A stretch of DNA of 64,000 nt, taken from sequence record PZ445517.1. One strand, written 5' to 3'. This document shows, piece after piece, positions 39,189-50,249 of this stretch. A program made the translations under genes and the position numbers. This stretch comes from a phage. The first letter of the stretch is position 1; every line of letters starts with the position of its first letter. The notes beneath the pieces are model-generated. The model made no database searches. It was not told where the DNA came from and saw only the letters and a list, made by a program, of their open reading frames with translations.

Positions 39189-39662
39189 TTATTTGAATGA
39201 TTTAACGTACTGAATAGAACCTTTACTATTCACAAAGGCAATTTTACCATTTTTATTATACATGGTAGCAGTACGCTGATAGCCATAAGTTTGTTTACCA
39301 GATTGATAACCAACTAATGCGAAATTATCTTCACCCATTTTATTCTGTTTAGCACGAATACGTTCATGACCATGTGCCATAAGAACCTTAGCATCACCAG
39401 TTGCAATGGATCGACGAGTTTTTTCATCTTCAACTGTATTAACAAAGTCGTCAAATGAATCAAATTTAGCATGAGATTTATTATACAGTTTTCCATCTAC
39501 TGCATAATTATATCCTTGTACATCCATCTCAACTTCTGTACCATCATCCAATACAGCAGTGATTTTCTGACCTTTTTTAAATTTCAAAAGATCAGTAAAA
39601 GATTCAGCAATAATTTGAGAATTAATAGCTGCTTCAGTAATAAATTCTTGATATGTTTTCAT
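39189..39662 (-). CDS. internal protein with capsid-targeting leader (ipII-locus variant)
   Basis: N-terminus MKTYQEFITEAA = T-even capsid targeting sequence; 157 aa. Confidence 0.7.
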   Translation of the reverse strand: MKTYQEFITEAAINSQIIAESFTDLLKFKKGQKITAVLDDGTEVEMDVQGYNYAVDGKLYNKSHAKFDSFDDFVNTVEDEKTRRSIATGDAKVLMAHGHERIRAKQNKMGEDNFALVGYQSGKQTYGYQRTATMYNKNGKIAFVNSKGSIQYVKSFK

Positions 39663-39703
39663 ATGTTTCCTTTAAATGTAAATAGGTCTGAGTATTAGCT
39701 TTA

Positions 39704-40285
39704 TTAAGAATTACCGCGGGCTGCATTAGCAACGGCGTAAGCGTACTGAACATTAGCGTCTTTAAACGTACCTTTAGAGGTATCTAGTTCTGCCTTAAAG
39801 CCGCCTTTAGTCATAACCTCGGCGAATTCTTTACGGAAAGCCATTGCATCAAGGCTTCTCCATGATGATTTGTGCTTGGCGAATTCAAGACCAGCGTAGT
39901 TGACAGCCTTAGCTAATTTATTATCAATAACCCATTTACCAGATTTAGGCACAAACACCGGGCCTTTCTGTTTAGAGAATAGTTTTAAATTCCAGCGACG
40001 AAGGTCACCGTCAGCTTTAACAAAAGCTGCGTCCAAGTTACTAGCAACAACATCTTGAATATGACCAAATTTAAGCCCATCAACTTCAATATTTAAATCG
40101 GTACGCCAGCGAAGTCCTTCCCAAGCGAAGGCTTTAAAGTCGGAAGCCTTTGTAGCTAAGTACCGTTCAATAGGAGCTGTTTTAGGGTCAAAGCCGTTTC
40201 CCGATCGGTAGGTCCACTCATCTTTATTAATGCCTTTGGCCTTTACTACAGAAGCTTCGGCAATAAATTCTTGATAGGTTTTCAT
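39704..40285 (-). CDS. ipIII: internal protein III
   Basis: 193 aa with MKTYQEFIAEA leader; T4 IPIII length. Confidence 0.8.
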   Translation of the reverse strand: MKTYQEFIAEASVVKAKGINKDEWTYRSGNGFDPKTAPIERYLATKASDFKAFAWEGLRWRTDLNIEVDGLKFGHIQDVVASNLDAAFVKADGDLRRWNLKLFSKQKGPVFVPKSGKWVIDNKLAKAVNYAGLEFAKHKSSWRSLDAMAFRKEFAEVMTKGGFKAELDTSKGTFKDANVQYAYAVANAARGNS

Positions 40286-44954: not shown

Positions 44955-45030
44955 TGGTCGAGGCAGTAGGGATCGAACCTACGACCCAGGACTTAGAAGG
45001 TCCTTGCTCTTCCTTCTGAGCTATGCCTCG
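44955..45030 (-). tRNA. tRNA-Arg (anticodon UCU)
   Basis: Hand-folded cloverleaf: acceptor CGAGGCA/TGCCTCG, anticodon loop CTTCTAA, T-arm GTAGG-TTCGATC-CCTAC, encoded CCA. Confidence 0.8.
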
Positions 45031-45034
45031 GATT

Positions 45035-45109
45035 TGGCGGACGTGATAGGATTCGAACCTATAACCAATCGCTTAACAGGCGATCGCTCTGCCATTGAGC
45101 TACACATCC
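45035..45109 (-). tRNA. tRNA-Asn (anticodon GUU)
   Basis: Acceptor GGATGTG/CACGTCC, anticodon loop CTGTTAA, T-arm ATAGG-TTCGAAT-CCTAT, CCA encoded. Confidence 0.7.
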
Positions 45110-45113
45110 AAAT

Positions 45114-45200
45114 TGGTGGGGAGTGATGGAGTCGAACCACCCGAGTCGCAATGACAATGGATTTACAGTCCACACCGCTACCTCTACGGGATAACTCCCC
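45114..45200 (-). tRNA. tRNA-Tyr (anticodon GUA), long variable arm
   Basis: Acceptor GGGGAGT/ACTCCCC, anticodon loop CTGTAAA, 15-nt variable arm, T-arm GGTGG-TTCGACT-CCATC; D-arm not resolved by hand. Confidence 0.6.
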
Positions 45201-45209
45201 AAATTAATT

Positions 45210-45284
45210 TGGTGGCCCTGGGTGGAATTGAACCACCATCTGGCGATTATGAGTCGCTTGCTTGAACCTTCCAGCTACAGGGCC
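45210..45284 (-). tRNA. tRNA with CAU anticodon (Ile-lysidine type or Met)
   Basis: Acceptor GGCCCTG/CAGGGCC, anticodon loop CTCATAA, T-arm GGTGG-TTCAATT-CCACC, CCA encoded. Confidence 0.65.
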
Positions 45285-45293
45285 AAATTTTTC

Positions 45294-45779
45294 TTATTTT
45301 ATGTAATATTTATTTAAAAACTTTCTAGCTTGAGTATGGCTAACATTTATAGCGTTTGCATAATTTTTAATAAAACCTCGTTCATCCATATTAAAATTTT
45401 CTAATATTTTTAATCGTCTAATTATCTCATCTTGGCTTAAGGTACTTGCATTATTTTTAGAAATTTTTTCTAAAGACTGCACTGAGTGTTTTCGACCATT
45501 AAAATTAAAATTTTTAGGTTTTGGAGGAAATCTATCATTTAGTCTCGCATCTTTTGTATTTTGATTATTAGTTGCGCAATATATGTTATTTAATGAGTAT
45601 GGTCCTTTATCACCAAAACGACACATACAGTATTCATGACCCTTTCTTCCACGCTTATCATAATTTCCTGTTGATTTCCACCAATTTAACCACTCATCAA
45701 AAGTTAAATTCCATTCAATGTTTCTACGTATAGCAGAATTCCGCTGAGAAATATATTTTGCATAATCTTCTTTCATCAC
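45294..45779 (-). CDS. hypothetical protein inside tRNA cluster with Cys/His-rich nuclease-like segment and C-terminal HTH (possible mobile-element endonuclease)
   Basis: 161 aa; RRNIEWNLTFDEWLNWW...GHEYCMCRFGDKGPYSLNNIYCATNNQN; C-terminal VSHTQARKFLNKY resembles the HTH tail of the HNH protein at 46172..46804. Confidence 0.5.
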   Translation of the reverse strand: MMKEDYAKYISQRNSAIRRNIEWNLTFDEWLNWWKSTGNYDKRGRKGHEYCMCRFGDKGPYSLNNIYCATNNQNTKDARLNDRFPPKPKNFNFNGRKHSVQSLEKISKNNASTLSQDEIIRRLKILENFNMDERGFIKNYANAINVSHTQARKFLNKYYIK

Positions 45780-45823
45780 AAATTTCTCTACTTATTACAT
45801 GCACTAAGCTAAATCAGCAAAAC

Positions 45824-45913
45824 TGGCGGAGGCGATAGGATTTGAACCTATGAGTCGCCGGAGCGACTGCCGGTTTTCAAGACCGGTGCATTAAACCACT
45901 CTGCCACGCCTCC
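45824..45913 (-). tRNA. tRNA-Ser (anticodon UGA), long variable arm
   Basis: Acceptor GGAGGCG/CGCCTCC, anticodon stem-loop CCGGT-CTTGAAA-ACCGG, variable-arm hairpin, T-arm ATAGG-TTCAAAT-CCTAT. Confidence 0.8.
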
Positions 45914-45915
45914 AG

Positions 45916-45989
45916 TCTCCATACAAGGATTTGAACCTTGGACCTCCTGATCCCAAATCAGGCGCTCTACCAAACTGAGCTACACGGAG
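45916..45989 (-). tRNA. tRNA-Pro (anticodon UGG), no encoded CCA; 2 nt from tRNA-Ser (dimeric precursor arrangement)
   Basis: D-arm GCTC-AGTTTGGTA-GAGC, anticodon stem-loop CCTGA-TTTGGGA-TCAGG, T-arm CAAGG-TTCAAAT-CCTTG. Confidence 0.75.
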
Positions 45990-45999
45990 TAAATTAAAT

Positions 46000-46073
<74 letters not shown>

Positions 46074-46078
46074 AAATT

Positions 46079-46165
46079 TGGTGCGAGAAGTGGGACTCGA
46101 ACCCACAAGGAAATCATTCCGCAGCATTTTAAGTGCTGTGCCTTTACCAATTTGACCATTCTCGC
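46079..46165 (-). tRNA. tRNA-Leu (anticodon UAA), long variable arm
   Basis: Acceptor GCGAGAA/TTCTCGC, anticodon stem-loop CAGCA-CTTAAAA-TGCTG, T-arm GTGGG-TTCGAGT-CCCAC, CCA encoded. Confidence 0.8.
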
Positions 46166-46171
46166 TCTATA

Positions 46172-46804
46172 TTATTTATTACGTGAAAAAGATTGTTCTA
46201 TCAATTCTGGACACTTTCGTTCTATCCATTTTCTAGCTTTTTGTGGGCTTATACCTATTATTTTAGCAGCTTTACTAACCCATCCAAATTTAGAATAATC
46301 GATTTTAACTAATTCTTCGTAAATTTCATCAGTTAAAATCTTTTCATTAATATTTACCAGTAAATGATATAATTTATTATCATTAGCAATTTTAATGAAT
46401 CTTTTATAGTTTCCGCCTTTACTTAAACCTAATGAAGTAATTGCAGATGATATAGTAGCCGAATTTAATAATGCGTTTAAAATTTCTTCATCACTAACAT
46501 TATAACGCTTTTTATTATTTTTAATATTTTTACCAGCAAAAGTATCAGTTTGCGAATGGCAATTTGGACATAATAATCTTAAATTTGATTTAAGATGATT
46601 TTTATTATTTCCATCAATATGGTCTAATTGCAGAACAATATGCTTATTTTGCCATTTTGAAATTTTACAAATTGCACACTCATATGGAAAAATATTTTCT
46701 TTTATTATTTTGTCTTTCAGCTTTCCTGTACTAAAATTTGGATGTTTTCCTTCAAAAATTTCAGCTAATTTAGTATCCATAATATAATTCCCAATTATTA
46801 ACAA
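46172..46804 (-). CDS. HNH endonuclease with C-terminal DNA-binding (HTH) domain, directly upstream of tRNA cluster
   Basis: LDHIDGNNKNHLKSNLRLLCPNCH canonical HNH motif preceded by CxxC; 210 aa. Confidence 0.75.
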   Translation of the reverse strand: MLIIGNYIMDTKLAEIFEGKHPNFSTGKLKDKIIKENIFPYECAICKISKWQNKHIVLQLDHIDGNNKNHLKSNLRLLCPNCHSQTDTFAGKNIKNNKKRYNVSDEEILNALLNSATISSAITSLGLSKGGNYKRFIKIANDNKLYHLLVNINEKILTDEIYEELVKIDYSKFGWVSKAAKIIGISPQKARKWIERKCPELIEQSFSRNK

Positions 46805-46890
46805 AGGCTCTCAAACAAGAACCCTTGATGATAGAGGGTATTAATCAGTGCGGTATGAGTTAATAATAACAAATAATTCTTAAAGCATAT

Positions 46891-47184
46891 TTACCATTTA
46901 TGATAATACATATTTACGATGCATTCAAGACCCAAAGGATTCTTGAAAATATCATATTCAAGAGGACCTTTTTCTGTTTCAATAAAGAAATCAAAATTTA
47001 CTGTATTAAATTTACGGTCTTCCTTCACTAATTTAACTTGAGAAGATGAACGGTCAACATAAACCTTTTCAACTTCAAAACATGTTAAAATGCCATAATC
47101 ATCAATCAAGGCTTTAGCTGCTTCTTGATCATATTTATATCCATTTTCAATGGATGATACTTTAGCATAAAGAATCATTATCAA
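46891..47184 (-). CDS. hypothetical protein
   Basis: 97 aa ORF. Confidence 0.5.
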   Translation of the reverse strand: MIMILYAKVSSIENGYKYDQEAAKALIDDYGILTCFEVEKVYVDRSSSQVKLVKEDRKFNTVNFDFFIETEKGPLEYDIFKNPLGLECIVNMYYHKW

Positions 47185-47591
47185 CCTTCATCAACAATAG
47201 TATGAGTATGGGCATTTACGATTTGCCACCAGTCGAAACGATTGGAACCATAATCTGGTTTATTTTCATTCTCTTTAATGATATCACGCAGTTTATCTTC
47301 TGTTTCAGCATACGCAATTAAATCATCATATCCGCCACAAGGATAATAATTATCACCTGCGAATAAAAGAAAATTTACCTTAGATGGATTTACGTAATAA
47401 TGGTCTTTAGGATATTTAGTTCCTCTCCAATCAGTTACTTCAACATAACGGTAAGAAAATCCATTTTTACTTTCAATCCAACTCCACGCTTCAAAAGGAG
47501 TATTAAAAACTTTATCAGGTATTAAATTACCTTCAAAATGAGAAGGATTTGCATAATCCCCGGCATAAACATAATATTCGTTAATACTCAT
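47181..47591 (-). CDS. hypothetical protein
   Basis: 136 aa ORF. Confidence 0.5.
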   Translation of the reverse strand: MSINEYYVYAGDYANPSHFEGNLIPDKVFNTPFEAWSWIESKNGFSYRYVEVTDWRGTKYPKDHYYVNPSKVNFLLFAGDNYYPCGGYDDLIAYAETEDKLRDIIKENENKPDYGSNRFDWWQIVNAHTHTIVDEG

Positions 47592-47777
47592 TTATTCACC
47601 TTTAGAAATTTTATCCATAACAATAGCAATTAAACCAATTAAAAATGCTACTACAAGTGAAAACACATTTTCTGCTGTAGTTAATAATCCGCATATAAAT
47701 CCAACAAACATTGAAAAACTAAAAGCGGAAGCAGAAATTGCAATAGCAACATTTCGAATTAATTCACAACGTTTCAT
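47592..47777 (-). CDS. small membrane protein
   Basis: 61 aa, single TM helix; early promoter upstream. Confidence 0.5.
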   Translation of the reverse strand: MKRCELIRNVAIAISASAFSFSMFVGFICGLLTTAENVFSLVVAFLIGLIAIVMDKISKGE

Positions 47778-47794
47778 TTTATTCTCCTCAGTAG

Positions 47795-47838
47795 TTGATA
47801 GGGTAATAATATCACACTACTACCCTACTGTAAACAAT
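47795..47838 (-). promoter_or_regulatory. early promoter with stem-loop (PeSL-like cassette)
   Basis: agggtaataatatcacactactaccct inverted repeat plus gtaaac -35. Confidence 0.5.
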
Positions 47839-48063
47839 TTATTCAACACCAGCGGCTTTCAAAAGTTTTTTAAGATTGGCAACACCTTGAGCAGAAAATG
47901 TGACCTTGCCACCTTTTTCACTGATAGAACCAACCAATTTAGCAAGTTTATCATTAGGAATTTTTTTAAAATCAGCCAATGTTCCATCAAAGGTTTTTGA
48001 AACAAAAGGCAGTTCATCTTCATGTCTTTTAGCTTCTGCAATAAATTCTTGATATGTTTTCAT
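47839..48063 (-). CDS. internal protein with capsid-targeting leader (ipI-locus cassette)
   Basis: ATG 48061-48063; MKTYQEFIAEAKRHEDE... CTS; 74 aa; track N-terminal extension is promoter DNA. Confidence 0.7.
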   Translation of the reverse strand: MKTYQEFIAEAKRHEDELPFVSKTFDGTLADFKKIPNDKLAKLVGSISEKGGKVTFSAQGVANLKKLLKAAGVE

Positions 48064-48091
48064 TTTAGTTTCCATTTGGATGTTTTGTTTT

Positions 48092-48133
48092 GATAGGGTA
48101 ATAGTATCACTACTAAAACCCCGTGTAAACAAC
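48092..48133 (-). promoter_or_regulatory. early promoter with stem-loop (PeSL-like cassette)
   Basis: ttttgatagggtaatagtatcactac...gtaaacaactttgtgaaaaa. Confidence 0.55.
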
Positions 48134-48148
48134 TTTGTGAAAAATTTA

Positions 48149-48436
48149 TTACAAAAGATTTTTAGCAATAATCTTGAGATGTGCCGCAGAAATGTGTTTA
48201 GCTTTAAACAACGCAGTTTCTTCAGCAGGAGAGATAACGATTGTAGCACCATCCTTTTTAGCAGACCACCCATCGCCTAGGTAAACAGTACCTTTGATTT
48301 CTTCGCCATCAACCAGACTAATCATTGGTTTACCTTCTCGTCCTTTATTTGCTTTAATAACTTCAGAAGTAAGAGTAGCTTCGGTAATAGTAGAAACCGG
48401 GGTAGTTGTAGAAGTAAATTCTTTGAAAGTTTTCAT
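48149..48436 (-). CDS. internal-protein-like gene with MKTFKEF capsid-targeting-type leader
   Basis: 95 aa; N-terminus MKTFKEFTSTT; preceded by repeated promoter cassette. Confidence 0.6.
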   Translation of the reverse strand: MKTFKEFTSTTTPVSTITEATLTSEVIKANKGREGKPMISLVDGEEIKGTVYLGDGWSAKKDGATIVISPAEETALFKAKHISAAHLKIIAKNLL

Positions 48437-48457
48437 TTTATTTTCCTAATTAATTTT

Positions 48458-48499
48458 GATGAGGTAATAGTATCACTACTAAAACCCTATGTAAACAAC
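48458..48499 (-). promoter_or_regulatory. early promoter with stem-loop (PeSL-like cassette), copy of 48788..48829
   Basis: About 110-bp near-identical direct repeat with 48751-48860. Confidence 0.55.
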
Positions 48500-48508
48500 T
48501 TTGTGAAA

Positions 48509-48766
48509 TTATTTTAAATCTTCTAATCGTTTCTTCATCTTAGAACCGTTCTTAGCGATTTCGCCTGCATCAGAGCATAATGCTAAAAGCGCTTTAACTT
48601 TAGTTTGGTCTCCTTTAAAAGATGAAGGATCAACAGCAGCAGCAAGTTCTTTAATACGAGAGAAAAGACGCTCAGCTTCAGCTAAAGCCATTCCAAGCTT
48701 TACTTCCATACCGCGGGAAGATTCAGTAATAGTAGTTTTTGTAGCAAACTCTTTGAAAGTTTTCAT
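48509..48766 (-). CDS. internal-protein-like gene with MKTFKEF leader
   Basis: 85 aa; N-terminus MKTFKEFATKTT. Confidence 0.6.
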   Translation of the reverse strand: MKTFKEFATKTTITESSRGMEVKLGMALAEAERLFSRIKELAAAVDPSSFKGDQTKVKALLALCSDAGEIAKNGSKMKKRLEDLK

Positions 48767-48787
48767 TTTATTTTCCTAATTAATTTT

Positions 48788-48829
48788 GATGAGGTAATAG
48801 TATCACTACCTCATCAGTATGTAAACAAC
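48788..48829 (-). promoter_or_regulatory. early promoter with stem-loop (PeSL-like cassette)
   Basis: gatgaggtaatagtatcactacctcatc inverted repeat plus gtaaac. Confidence 0.55.
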
Positions 48830-48838
48830 TTTGTGAAA

Positions 48839-49523
<685 letters not shown>

Positions 49524-49524
<1 letters not shown>

Positions 49525-50249
49525 TATAGTACCTTTAGTGTATTTTTAATTTTAGAAAAAAGTTCTTCAAGAGAACCATCGTTTGTAATTACTAAATCAC
49601 CATCACGAATTGGCAATCCAGCTTCTGTAATATGTGTATCATTGGATTTTTGACCAGGACGAACTACATGAATTACTGTAGCACCCATCGCCCTAGCCGC
49701 ATCCATTTCATGATCTTGACGAGTATCAGGAACGATATAATAATCATAACCTGAGTTAAATTTATCAAGATAATCTAAAGCAAATAATTTTACCCAATAC
49801 ATGCGGTCGAAGTTATTAACAATCAAATCCGTACCTAGGGCTTGCATCAGACGACGGACTGACCATTGATCTTCAATATTATTTATAACGTCAGCAATCT
49901 TGTTAAATGCTACGAAATTAACTGATTCTTTTCCTTCGTCATCAAAAACAAACACACCTTTAATTGGGCTTTTACTATTAAGATAGCAAAATGCTTGTTC
50001 CATAATAGTAATTACTTCTAATTTAGTCAGATTTAAATTAGTCTCACGATCATAGTCAATTCCTTCAAACTCTTTACGAGTTAAGCAAGGATAGTCAGTG
50101 TTTGCAGCAAATACGCCCCATGCATAAGCCAATGCATCTTTAATAGGACCAGCAAGTTGATATTTAACTGCAGAATAATTATTCATGATAAAATCTGCAG
50201 TAGTATCTTTTCCACTACGCTTTACACCACTTAAAAAGATTAATTTCAT
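49524..50249 (-). CDS. 1: deoxynucleoside monophosphate kinase gp1
   Basis: 241 aa, T4 gp1 length; P-loop GVKRSGKDT. Confidence 0.9.

Follow-up and report, generated by a model that had tools for sequence, protein, structure and literature searches.

The question raised by this locus is whether three consecutive small genes in a 64,000-nucleotide stretch of phage DNA (record PZ445517.1, referred to here as the window) form an internal-protein locus built from shuffled cassettes, and whether their products are new capsid-injected effectors, as the initial annotation had proposed. The whole window showed 100% DNA identity to Escherichia phage T4_ev240 (LR597657.1), a Tequatrovirus. The gene order on the minus strand was 57B(Acb1) – ip5 – ipI – ip8 – trna.4. 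The conserved upstream flank of the locus, 57B (48839..49294, minus strand), encodes the anti-CBASS phosphodiesterase Acb1 (Pfam PF23474 Acb1, E=7e-60) and is annotated as 57B in T4 and RB14. The conserved downstream flank, trna.4 (47592..47777, minus strand), encodes a 61-aa predicted membrane protein (phrog_1692) that is annotated as Trna.4 in the same two phages. Synteny of this slot was found with T4, RB14, VR5, AREG1 and CM8; the second IP locus of T4-type phages adjoins gene e. Synteny with T4 and RB14 is kept, with ip5 and ip8 as added cassettes, and the number of cassettes at the ipI locus is three in this phage (ip5-ipI-ip8), two in RB14 and one in T4. The proposal of a T4-type internal-protein locus was borne out: the region is very probably a Tequatrovirus ipI locus of the classical, hypervariable kind, with the cassettes ip5, ipI and ip8 between 57B and trna.4. 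Uniqueness of this order was rejected, as Shigella phages CM8 and vb_GEC_SH_GT have the same one.

For T4 ipI and the T-even IP loci (Repoila et al. 1994 EMBO J, as reported in PMC2839356, PMC4122927 and PMC3012670), the same slot, 57B ... trna.4, is described, with the same capsid-targeting (CTS) leaders and a conserved block of promoter plus translation start ahead of every ip gene. Cargoes vary there in number and identity, ipI is identical, and there is no essential difference from the present locus. The locus is already known as a variable internal-protein locus whose pattern has been described since 1994, and nothing in it is new.

The three genes, described beforehand as starting with MKTYQEFIAEA or MKTFKEF, were recovered as minus-strand ORFs of 85, 95 and 74 aa. 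The ip5 gene (48509..48766, read from 48766 to 48509) encodes an 85-aa precursor with 99% identity to RB14 Ip5 (phrog_3499, 'internal head protein'). The 95-aa precursor encoded by ipI (48149..48436, read from 48436 to 48149) is 100% identical to the IpI proteins of T4 and RB14. It was the only one of the three with membership in Pfam IPI_T4 (PF11634, E=7e-54), as Pfam searches with Ip5 and Ip8 gave no match. The 74-aa precursor encoded by ip8 (47839..48063, read from 48063 to 47839) is annotated as Ip8 in VR5 and CM8 (phrog_8765), and T4 and RB14 both lack this gene. The statement that the cargoes differ from T4 IPI was thus wrong for the middle gene, and the other two are not new, as they belong to the named families Ip5 and Ip8, present in 495 and 108 phage records, respectively.

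All three ORFs carry a leader of the type MKT(Y/F)(Q/K)EF (MKTFKEF or MKTYQEF) whose residues 4 and 7 are aromatic, together with a site for the gp21 prohead protease (L/I-x-E, 10-19-residue propeptide), namely IAE10 in Ip8, ITE15 in Ip5 and ITE19 in IpI. CTS determinants and gp21 specificity were taken from PMC9026906. Capsid-targeting leaders, each with a cleavage motif, are accordingly present in the sequence as proposed. With the cut marked by a slash, the leaders are MKTFKEFATKTTITE/SS in Ip5 (I-x-E site at residue 15), MKTFKEFTSTTTPVSTITE/A in IpI and MKTYQEFIAE/A in Ip8. The predicted mature proteins have 64-76 aa and a pI of 9.0-9.6 (Ip5*, 70 aa, pI 9.5; Ip8*, 64 aa, pI 9.6). Mature IPI* comprises 76 residues (20-95); PDB 2JUB matched residues 20-95 of IpI (E=1e-44), residue 20 being the first of the mature protein in the solved structure. 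Presence in the virion, processing and injection are experimentally established for T4 IPI, which is identical in sequence to IpI here. Literature on Ip5 or Ip8 in virions was not found, the names colliding with those in inositol-phosphate papers.

A strong promoter of the T4 early type, a short 5'UTR, the N-terminal CTS and a small, basic and unrelated cargo make up each cassette. The precursors would be made from early mRNA, and the protein would accumulate late. Time-resolved omics data (PMC9697503 supplement) place T4 ipI, whose promoter block corresponds to block A described below, in the class 'early RNA, late protein'. No late promoter (TATAAATA) was found within the locus, and the nearest one upstream on the minus strand is located at 49880-49887. 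We infer that late protein is supplied either from stable early mRNA or by read-through from 49880-49887. The CTS would direct the precursors into the prohead scaffold core, gp21 would then cut after I-x-E (E10 in Ip8, E15 in Ip5, E19 in IpI), and the mature 64-76-aa proteins would be injected with the DNA.

T4 early-type promoters (UP/GTTTACA/17 nt/TGn-TAYTAT) were located ahead of each of the three ip genes, as had been proposed, and also ahead of trna.4. The four elements (TTTACA, 17 nt, TGn, TACTAT/TATTAT), at 48825-48797, 48495-48467, 48129-48101 and 47834-47806, match the T4 early promoter definition UP/-35/TGn/-10 (PMC2988021). They belong to four blocks on the minus strand. Block A, between 57B and ip5 (48767..48838), contains an A/T-rich UP-like region, the -35 element TTTACA (48825-48820), TGn, the -10 element TACTAT (48802-48797) and the 5'UTR AAAATTAATTAGGAAAATAAA; a block identical to it precedes ipI in T4 and AREG1. 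Block B, between ip5 and ipI (48437..48508; -35 at 48495-48490, -10 at 48472-48467), differs from block A only in an 8-nt patch standing in place of the 5' hairpin arm (GGGTTTTAG type) and, judged by sequence comparison, is a chimeric element. Block C, between ipI and ip8 (48064..48148; -35 at 48129-48124, -10 at 48106-48101), has a distinct, longer 5'UTR (AAAACAAAACATCCAAATGGAAACTAAA). Block D, between ip8 and trna.4 (47778..47838; -35 at 47834-47829, -10 TATTAT at 47811-47806), drives trna.4 and not an ip gene.

Inverted repeats had been reported ahead of each ip gene. A perfect one, with 10-bp arms at 48787-48796 and 48807-48816, was found only in block A, upstream of ip5, where it straddles the -10 element; the RNA hairpin has a folding energy of -17.4 kcal/mol (z = -3.75). 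Block C, upstream of ip8, contains an interrupted 5+5 bp stem at about 48095-48122 (z = -3.1). In block B, upstream of ipI, the 5' arm is lost and the fold (-9.5 kcal/mol, z = -0.92) is no better than that of shuffled sequences. The repeat 'agggta...taccct' of block D, with 7-bp arms at 47799-47805 and 47821-47827 (z = -2.7), sits downstream of ip8 and precedes trna.4, and hence is not an ip-gene element. A clean inverted repeat is therefore kept in only two of the four blocks (A and D), and the reported pattern applies to ip5 and, in interrupted form, to ip8, but not to ipI. The arms of the hairpin flank the -10 element, one within the -35/-10 spacer and one immediately past the -10. In dinucleotide shuffles of the AT-rich 1.2 kb, a perfect 10-bp repeat occurred in 11/200 cases, so that the repeat by itself is only marginally beyond chance; its reality follows from conservation and covariation in other phages. 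T4-like promoters showed at least nine different complementary arm pairs, and covarying arms occurred in at least three registers. Stems of at least 7 Watson-Crick pairs were present in 21% of the promoters versus 2.7% after re-pairing of arms between promoters, a control that leaves promoter relatedness in and uses a promoter set including some non-T4-like chance matches. The inverted repeat across the -10 element seems to have been selected for as a nucleic-acid hairpin, one that would be found only in read-through RNA or in single-stranded DNA. A cassette can persist without it, as shown by the broken hairpin upstream of ipI.

The resemblance to the promoter/stem-loop cassettes (PeSLs) was examined next to these results. 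PeSLs are known from RB49/phi1, PST/T4 and nt-1/KVP40 (Arbiol 2010, PMC2839356; Comeau 2014). In a PeSL the promoter is directly preceded by the stem-loop, which is often G/C-rich and terminates transcription (PMC4122927). An early promoter of the PST/T4 consensus TTTACW-N17-TAYWAT (PMC4122927) was present here in intergenic regions beside variable ORFs, but no stem was found upstream of the -35 element, the stem-loop position given for PeSLs (Fig. 3 legend, PMC4122927). Both kinds of element are composites of an intergenic early promoter and an inverted repeat that flank small variable genes and contain the breakpoints of insertions and deletions. The repeat of the ip locus differs in being AT-rich, in spanning the -10 element, in lacking a U-tract and in that one copy out of four is broken. 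The claimed match stands for early promoter, inverted repeat and breakpoints and fails for stem-loop position. Since the inverted repeat straddles the -10 element instead of preceding the promoter, the blocks are PeSL analogues and not PeSLs proper; Arbiol et al. (PMC2839356) label the IP-locus elements 'analogs, not homologs'.

The inverted repeats might still be PeSL-type terminators or insulators that stop upstream read-through and make each cassette an independent unit. Such an activity has precedent in the stem-loops of RB49/phi1 PeSLs, which were shown to terminate transcription (PMC2839356). As RNA, the present hairpins fold stably (-17 to -18 kcal/mol, z about -3), and they would be confined to read-through transcripts, since the promoter's own start falls within the 3' arm. 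However, a U-tract does not follow any of the hairpins and a terminator scan was negative at these sites, which leaves a PeSL-style terminator role unsupported; for want of U-tracts, the terminator reading of the hairpins is disfavoured. In addition, the hairpin straddles the -10 element, whereas the PeSL stem-loop is upstream of the promoter, block B persists without a hairpin, and in a locus lacking a late promoter the late supply of internal proteins may even need read-through. Terminators or insulators of the PeSL type are therefore considered rather unlikely. The apparently selected hairpin might act on read-through mRNA as a 3'-end barrier or insulator, or might be a recombination initiation site.

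GmrSD, a type IV restriction enzyme found in E. coli CT596, is inhibited by IPI*, reportedly as an injected protein (PDB 2JUB; Bair & Black 2007 and Rifat 2008, both as cited in later summaries). The ipI gene of this phage encodes exactly T4 IPI. Ip5 and Ip8 share leader, size, basic charge and locus with the GmrSD inhibitors IPI*, Ip2 and Ip3, but lack sequence or fold likeness to IPI*. The predicted fold of Ip5* is a two-helix hairpin (AlphaFold2, moderate pLDDT of 71.5), and that of Ip8* is a small beta-alpha-alpha-beta-beta-alpha domain (moderate pLDDT of 78.6). PDB sequence searches with Ip5 and Ip8 gave nothing significant, the Ip5 model, a generic helical hairpin, had no fold match in the PDB, and a BFVD structure search with Ip8 returned Ip8 relatives only. 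A phmmer search of mature Ip8 against 1.84 billion representatives retrieved Ip8 relatives and two giant repeat adhesins (P0022 and P0023; LapA/Calx-beta, DUF7507), and nothing else. The adhesins were judged to be spurious matches caused by a repeated 'GxxVTFS' strand motif. Homologous-protein searches with Ip5 and Ip8 yielded shallow T4-like families only, and neither mature protein has a detectable relative beyond T4-like phages.

Ip1, Ip2 and Ip3 inhibit GmrSD enzymes, a different one for each protein (PMC12373910), and by analogy Ip5* and Ip8* would most likely be inhibitors of other first-line host defences. Ip4-10 were assayed against GmrSD variants by Silas et al. 2025 (PMC12373910) without reproducible inhibition. 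A more specific proposal is offered as a tentative one: Ip5* and/or Ip8* may be injected to inhibit a non-GmrSD defence, beyond the enzymes tried, and, separately, the promoter hairpin may be a selected RNA or single-stranded DNA element with a function of its own. Alternatively, Ip5 and Ip8 could be mainly structural or charge-neutralising head-core proteins that serve DNA condensation or head assembly and are not anti-defence effectors. Their predicted mature forms are basic (pI 9.5-9.6) and have no informative fold match, the GmrSD variants tested were not reproducibly inhibited, internal proteins are present in hundreds of copies per T4 head, and IPIII mutants are slower in head assembly (PMC9026906). 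On the other hand, IP-null T4 grows on laboratory strains (PMC9026906), all three T4 internal proteins of known function are specific GmrSD inhibitors, and the presence or absence of cargoes is highly variable among close relatives, as is usual for accessory genes of an arms race and not for genes meeting a structural need. A mainly structural role is accordingly regarded as unlikely, and inhibition of host defences is preferred for Ip5* and Ip8*.

The assembly of the locus was deduced from its repeats and from comparison with other phages. Direct repeats of about 110 bp had been described; these are real, but the second block had been mis-registered by about 10 nt, and the true spacing is 330 and not 340. 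The repeat is 123 nt long with 90% identity between its copies. Both copies run from the 3' end of one gene through a promoter block and the 5'UTR into the first ~11 codons of the next: copy 1 (48402..48524) from ip5 through block B into ipI, and copy 2 (48732..48854) from 57B, whose final codons (..DDLK*) fall inside it, through block A into ip5. Within 101 nt, the copies differ only in the 8-nt patch at 48810-48817, the hairpin's 5' arm. Against other phages, homology broke exactly at the promoter core and at leader codon 11. Breakpoints of insertions, deletions and replacements fell within the promoter elements, every one examined being at the core or at the CTS boundary. Starting at the 3' end of ipI, the window and phage teqdroes are nearly identical across promoter and UTR as far as leader codon 11, block C being common to both; past this codon the cargo is unrelated, and the sequences converge at the next GTTTAC. 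In comparison with UFV-AREG1, the ip8 cargo is the same, and the 5' half of the promoter and the 5'UTR are different. Phage CM8 contains the tandem duplication ip5-ipI-57B'-ip5-ipI-ip8. The ip8 gene occurs in the same slot with different neighbours in Tequatrovirus, Dhakavirus and Jiaodavirus, and VR20 has an Ip5-like gene at the other IP locus, adjoining gene e.

Breakpoints inside the promoter core and where the 11-codon leader ends support cassette shuffling, so that the view of these cassettes as sites at which ip genes are shuffled is upheld. Repoila et al. 1994 are credited with the shuffling model, which Arbiol et al. 2010 (PMC2839356) discuss. That the repeats are ordinary duplicated strong promoters, with insertions and deletions arising by illegitimate recombination or homing endonucleases and an incidental link to cargo, is very improbable: same-core T4-type early promoters are common (14 in the window, all on the minus strand) and homing-endonuclease-like ORFs are situated nearby in the tRNA cluster, but all breakpoints examined coincide with the shared promoter core or the CTS boundary, the CM8 duplication is the expected product of unequal exchange between repeats, and the blocks of the ip locus (101 nt identical) are far more alike than promoter function needs. 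In the preferred model of cassette shuffling, the near-identical promoter blocks and the 33-nt CTS coding sequence would provide homology patches of 50-100 nt flanking each cargo. With such patches, the efficient homologous recombination of T4 could insert, delete, duplicate or swap cargoes and leave the expression and packaging signals undisturbed.

Taken as a whole, the initial observation was largely real and its interpretation largely right, with nothing new. The value of the window is confirmatory; it adds a further allele combination (ip5-ipI-ip8) and recombination joints at base resolution. What Ip5 and Ip8 target is a question that the literature already raises. As a textbook case of a swappable viral 'payload bay', the locus keeps interchangeable injected proteins, which disarm host restriction, between fixed signals for expression and packaging. 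It is relevant to the prediction of host range for therapeutic T4-like phages and to the use of the CTS for packaging of foreign proteins.

Over 46800-49400, the sequence matches that of Escherichia phage T4_ev240 (Tequatrovirus, LR597657.1) with 100% identity; RB14, RB3 and T4 match it blockwise at 95-97%. Gene order was deduced from the annotations of T4 and RB14. All genes in the ip-locus part are encoded on the minus strand, in the order gene 1 (dNMP kinase, 49524-50249), 57A (49294-49524), 57B (48839-49294), the small ORFs ip5 (48509-48766), ipI (48149-48436) and ip8 (47839-48063), and trna.4 (47592-47777), followed by trna.3, trna.2 and the tRNA cluster. The interval between 57B and trna.4 holds one small gene in T4 (ipI), two in RB14 (Ip5, IpI) and three in the present phage. 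The ip locus is a real feature, rightly recognised in the initial annotation, but the locus is already known, the phage has been sequenced and the gene families have been described. The tRNA cluster (44955-46804, minus strand) is devoid of tRNA-Gln and tRNA-Thr relative to T4 and RB14 and carries ORFs in their places; an ORF of 210 aa (46172-46804; weak HNH match, Pfam E=0.006, below the cutoff) and one of 161 aa (45294-45779) may be homing-endonuclease insertions.

The three consecutive ORFs begin with prohead-targeting leaders, as had been proposed (MKTFKEFATKTTITE, MKTFKEFTSTTTPVSTITE and MKTYQEFIAEA). A six-frame scan of the 64 kb yielded only two further such leaders, both in the second internal protein (IP) locus (39189-40285, minus strand). 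There, an ORF of 193 aa with leader MKTYQEFIAEA is a candidate ipIII by its position and length, which match T4 ipIII, and an ORF of 157 aa (leader MKTYQEFITEA; Pfam DUF7412, E=6e-96) occupies the place of the 100-aa ipII in T4, so that cargo has been replaced in this locus too. IP propeptides span 10-19 residues, and the prohead protease gp21 cleaves at the end of an L/I-x-E motif (PMC9026906). Candidate gp21 sites were IAE10 (Ip8), ITE15 (Ip5) and ITE19 (IpI), so the predicted mature forms have 64, 70 and 76 aa, respectively, and are basic (pI 9.0-9.6).

The cargoes had been described as different from T4 IPI. This does not apply to the middle gene, since its product is 100% identical to IpI of T4 and RB14 (Pfam IPI_T4, E=7e-54) and its residues 20-95 correspond to the solved structure of mature IPI, 2JUB; the other two are the known Ip5 and Ip8. 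The first gene product is 99% identical to RB14 Ip5, the mature form of which is present in 495 phage records. The third is named Ip8 in the VR5 and CM8 records and was found in 108 records spread over Tequatrovirus, Dhakavirus, Jiaodavirus and Moonvirus-like phages; all inspected loci have it in the 57B-trna.4 interval. An Ip5 homologue of Escherichia phage Killian (OQ446694.1, 87008-87217; 98.6% identity) is annotated as 'MazF family toxin-antitoxin system protein', which is probably an automatic misannotation because Ip5 has no Pfam hit.

Four GTTTACA-(spacer)-gTGaTAYTAT elements precede ip5, ipI, ip8 and trna.4 (blocks A, B, C and D). By sequence, they fit the UP/-35/TGn/-10 pattern described for T4 early promoters (PMC2988021). 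Early-promoter activity is supported, because T4 ipI, whose promoter block is the same as block A, is classed as 'early RNA, late protein' in the supplement of a time-resolved omics study (PMC9697503). No late promoter (TATAAATA) was found within the ip locus; the nearest upstream copy on the minus strand lies inside gene 1 (49880-49887). The whole window contains 14 GTTTAC-N-TAYWAT early-promoter-like motifs, none of them on the plus strand; outside the ip locus, these motifs have a different -10 context in common (TGGTACTATACAACTATC).

The direct repeats, initially put at about 110 bp, extend over 123 nt (48402-48524 and 48732-48854; 90% identity). A base-by-base comparison shows identity along 101 nt that begin in the final codons of the upstream gene (..DLK*), cover promoter and 5'UTR and reach into the leader, interrupted only by an 8-nt patch (48810-48817) with 6 of 8 bases differing, which coincides exactly with the 5' hairpin arm. 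An inverted repeat had been claimed for each gene; it is clean in two of four blocks, namely A (perfect 10-bp arms; RNA fold -17.4 kcal/mol, z = -3.75) and D (7-bp arms, z = -2.7), but broken in B (z = -0.9) and interrupted in C (5+5 bp stem, z = -3.1). The agggta...taccct repeat, previously assigned to an ip gene, sits before trna.4, which the fourth block serves. A perfect 10-bp repeat occurred in 5.5% of shuffles of the ip region and is alone weak evidence.

The -35/-10 spacer contains one arm, the second follows the -10 immediately, and no U-tract was found after the hairpins. Transcripts from the promoter itself would be without the hairpin; its formation would require read-through RNA or single-stranded DNA. 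IMG/VR was scanned for the promoter core with the arm sequences left free. Many T4-like promoters had differing yet complementary arms in at least three registers (among them GGTCTAT/ATAGACC, AGGCTAT/ATAGCCT, GGGTTAT/ATAACCC, GTGTAGGAGC/GCTCCTACAC and GTGCTATA/TATAGCAC). Stems of at least 7 Watson-Crick pairs were formed by 21% of 130 distinct elements, compared to 2.7% with arms re-paired between elements, a control that leaves relatedness between promoters in. Because the arms covary, they point to a nucleic-acid structure and not to a protein-binding site. Many non-ip early promoters of T4-like contigs (loci L013, L038, L044, L061, L062, L087 and others) also carry a -10-straddling inverted repeat with differing, compensating arms in at least three registers; the repeat is therefore general to one T4-like early promoter class and not specific to IP loci.

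The blocks had been equated with the promoter/stem-loop cassettes (PeSLs) described as recombination hotspots. The stem-loop of a PeSL in the strict sense is placed immediately before the promoter and terminates transcription (PMC4122927, Fig. 3 legend; PMC2839356), whereas here the arms flank the -10 and no U-tract follows. Arbiol et al. regarded the IP-locus elements as PeSL analogues with weaker, AT-rich stem-loops (PMC2839356). The blocks are such analogues, not PeSLs. Homology breakpoints at the promoter core and at leader codon 11 are evidence of cassette shuffling. Alignment of 15 intergenic blocks from five phages gave an invariant core (GTTTAC ... TGATAYTAT ... ATCAA) around which 5' arms, 3' arms and 5'UTRs are interchangeable, and block B is a fine-scale chimera. 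Phage teqdroes is near-identical to the window from the end of ipI via promoter and UTR to leader codon 11, continues with unrelated cargo and converges again at the next GTTTAC. With the ipI/ip8 junction as megablast query, dozens of phages matched from base 102 onward (window 48031, where codon 11 ends). UFV-AREG1 shares the ip8 cargo but differs in the promoter 5' half and 5'UTR. Shigella phage CM8 (MK962750.1, 1344-3064) carries a tandem duplication, ip5-ipI-57B'-ip5-ipI-ip8 with truncated 57B', which looks like a recent unequal crossover between the promoter/leader repeats and is the product that such an exchange would give. These comparisons match the shuffling model that PMC2839356, PMC4122927 and PMC3012670 credit to Repoila et al. 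1994. In VR20 (KP007360.1), the other IP locus contains an Ip5-like gene (1438-1719; about 57% identity to mature Ip5) immediately downstream of gene e and close to Ip10 and Ip7. Members of one cargo family are therefore present at both IP loci, in different genera.

Structure prediction gave a small α/β domain for Ip8 (pLDDT 78.6) and a helical hairpin for Ip5 (pLDDT 71.5), both of moderate confidence, and structure searches with these models returned no informative match. An exhaustive phmmer search with mature Ip8 returned no true relatives beyond T4-like phages, and a word-indexed search with Ip5 returned T4-like relatives only. The main rival reading is a structural or charge-neutralising role of Ip5 and Ip8. 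Tests of ip4-10 gave no reproducible inhibition of GmrSD variants (PMC12373910). [quoted passage not shown] An anti-defence role of Ip5 and Ip8 is the best inference, as yet unproven. The gene immediately upstream of the cassettes, 57B, is Acb1, an anti-CBASS cyclic-nucleotide phosphodiesterase (Pfam PF23474, E=7e-60) still named 'RNA ligase' or hypothetical in several records; an anti-defence gene therefore adjoins the injected anti-restriction cassettes.
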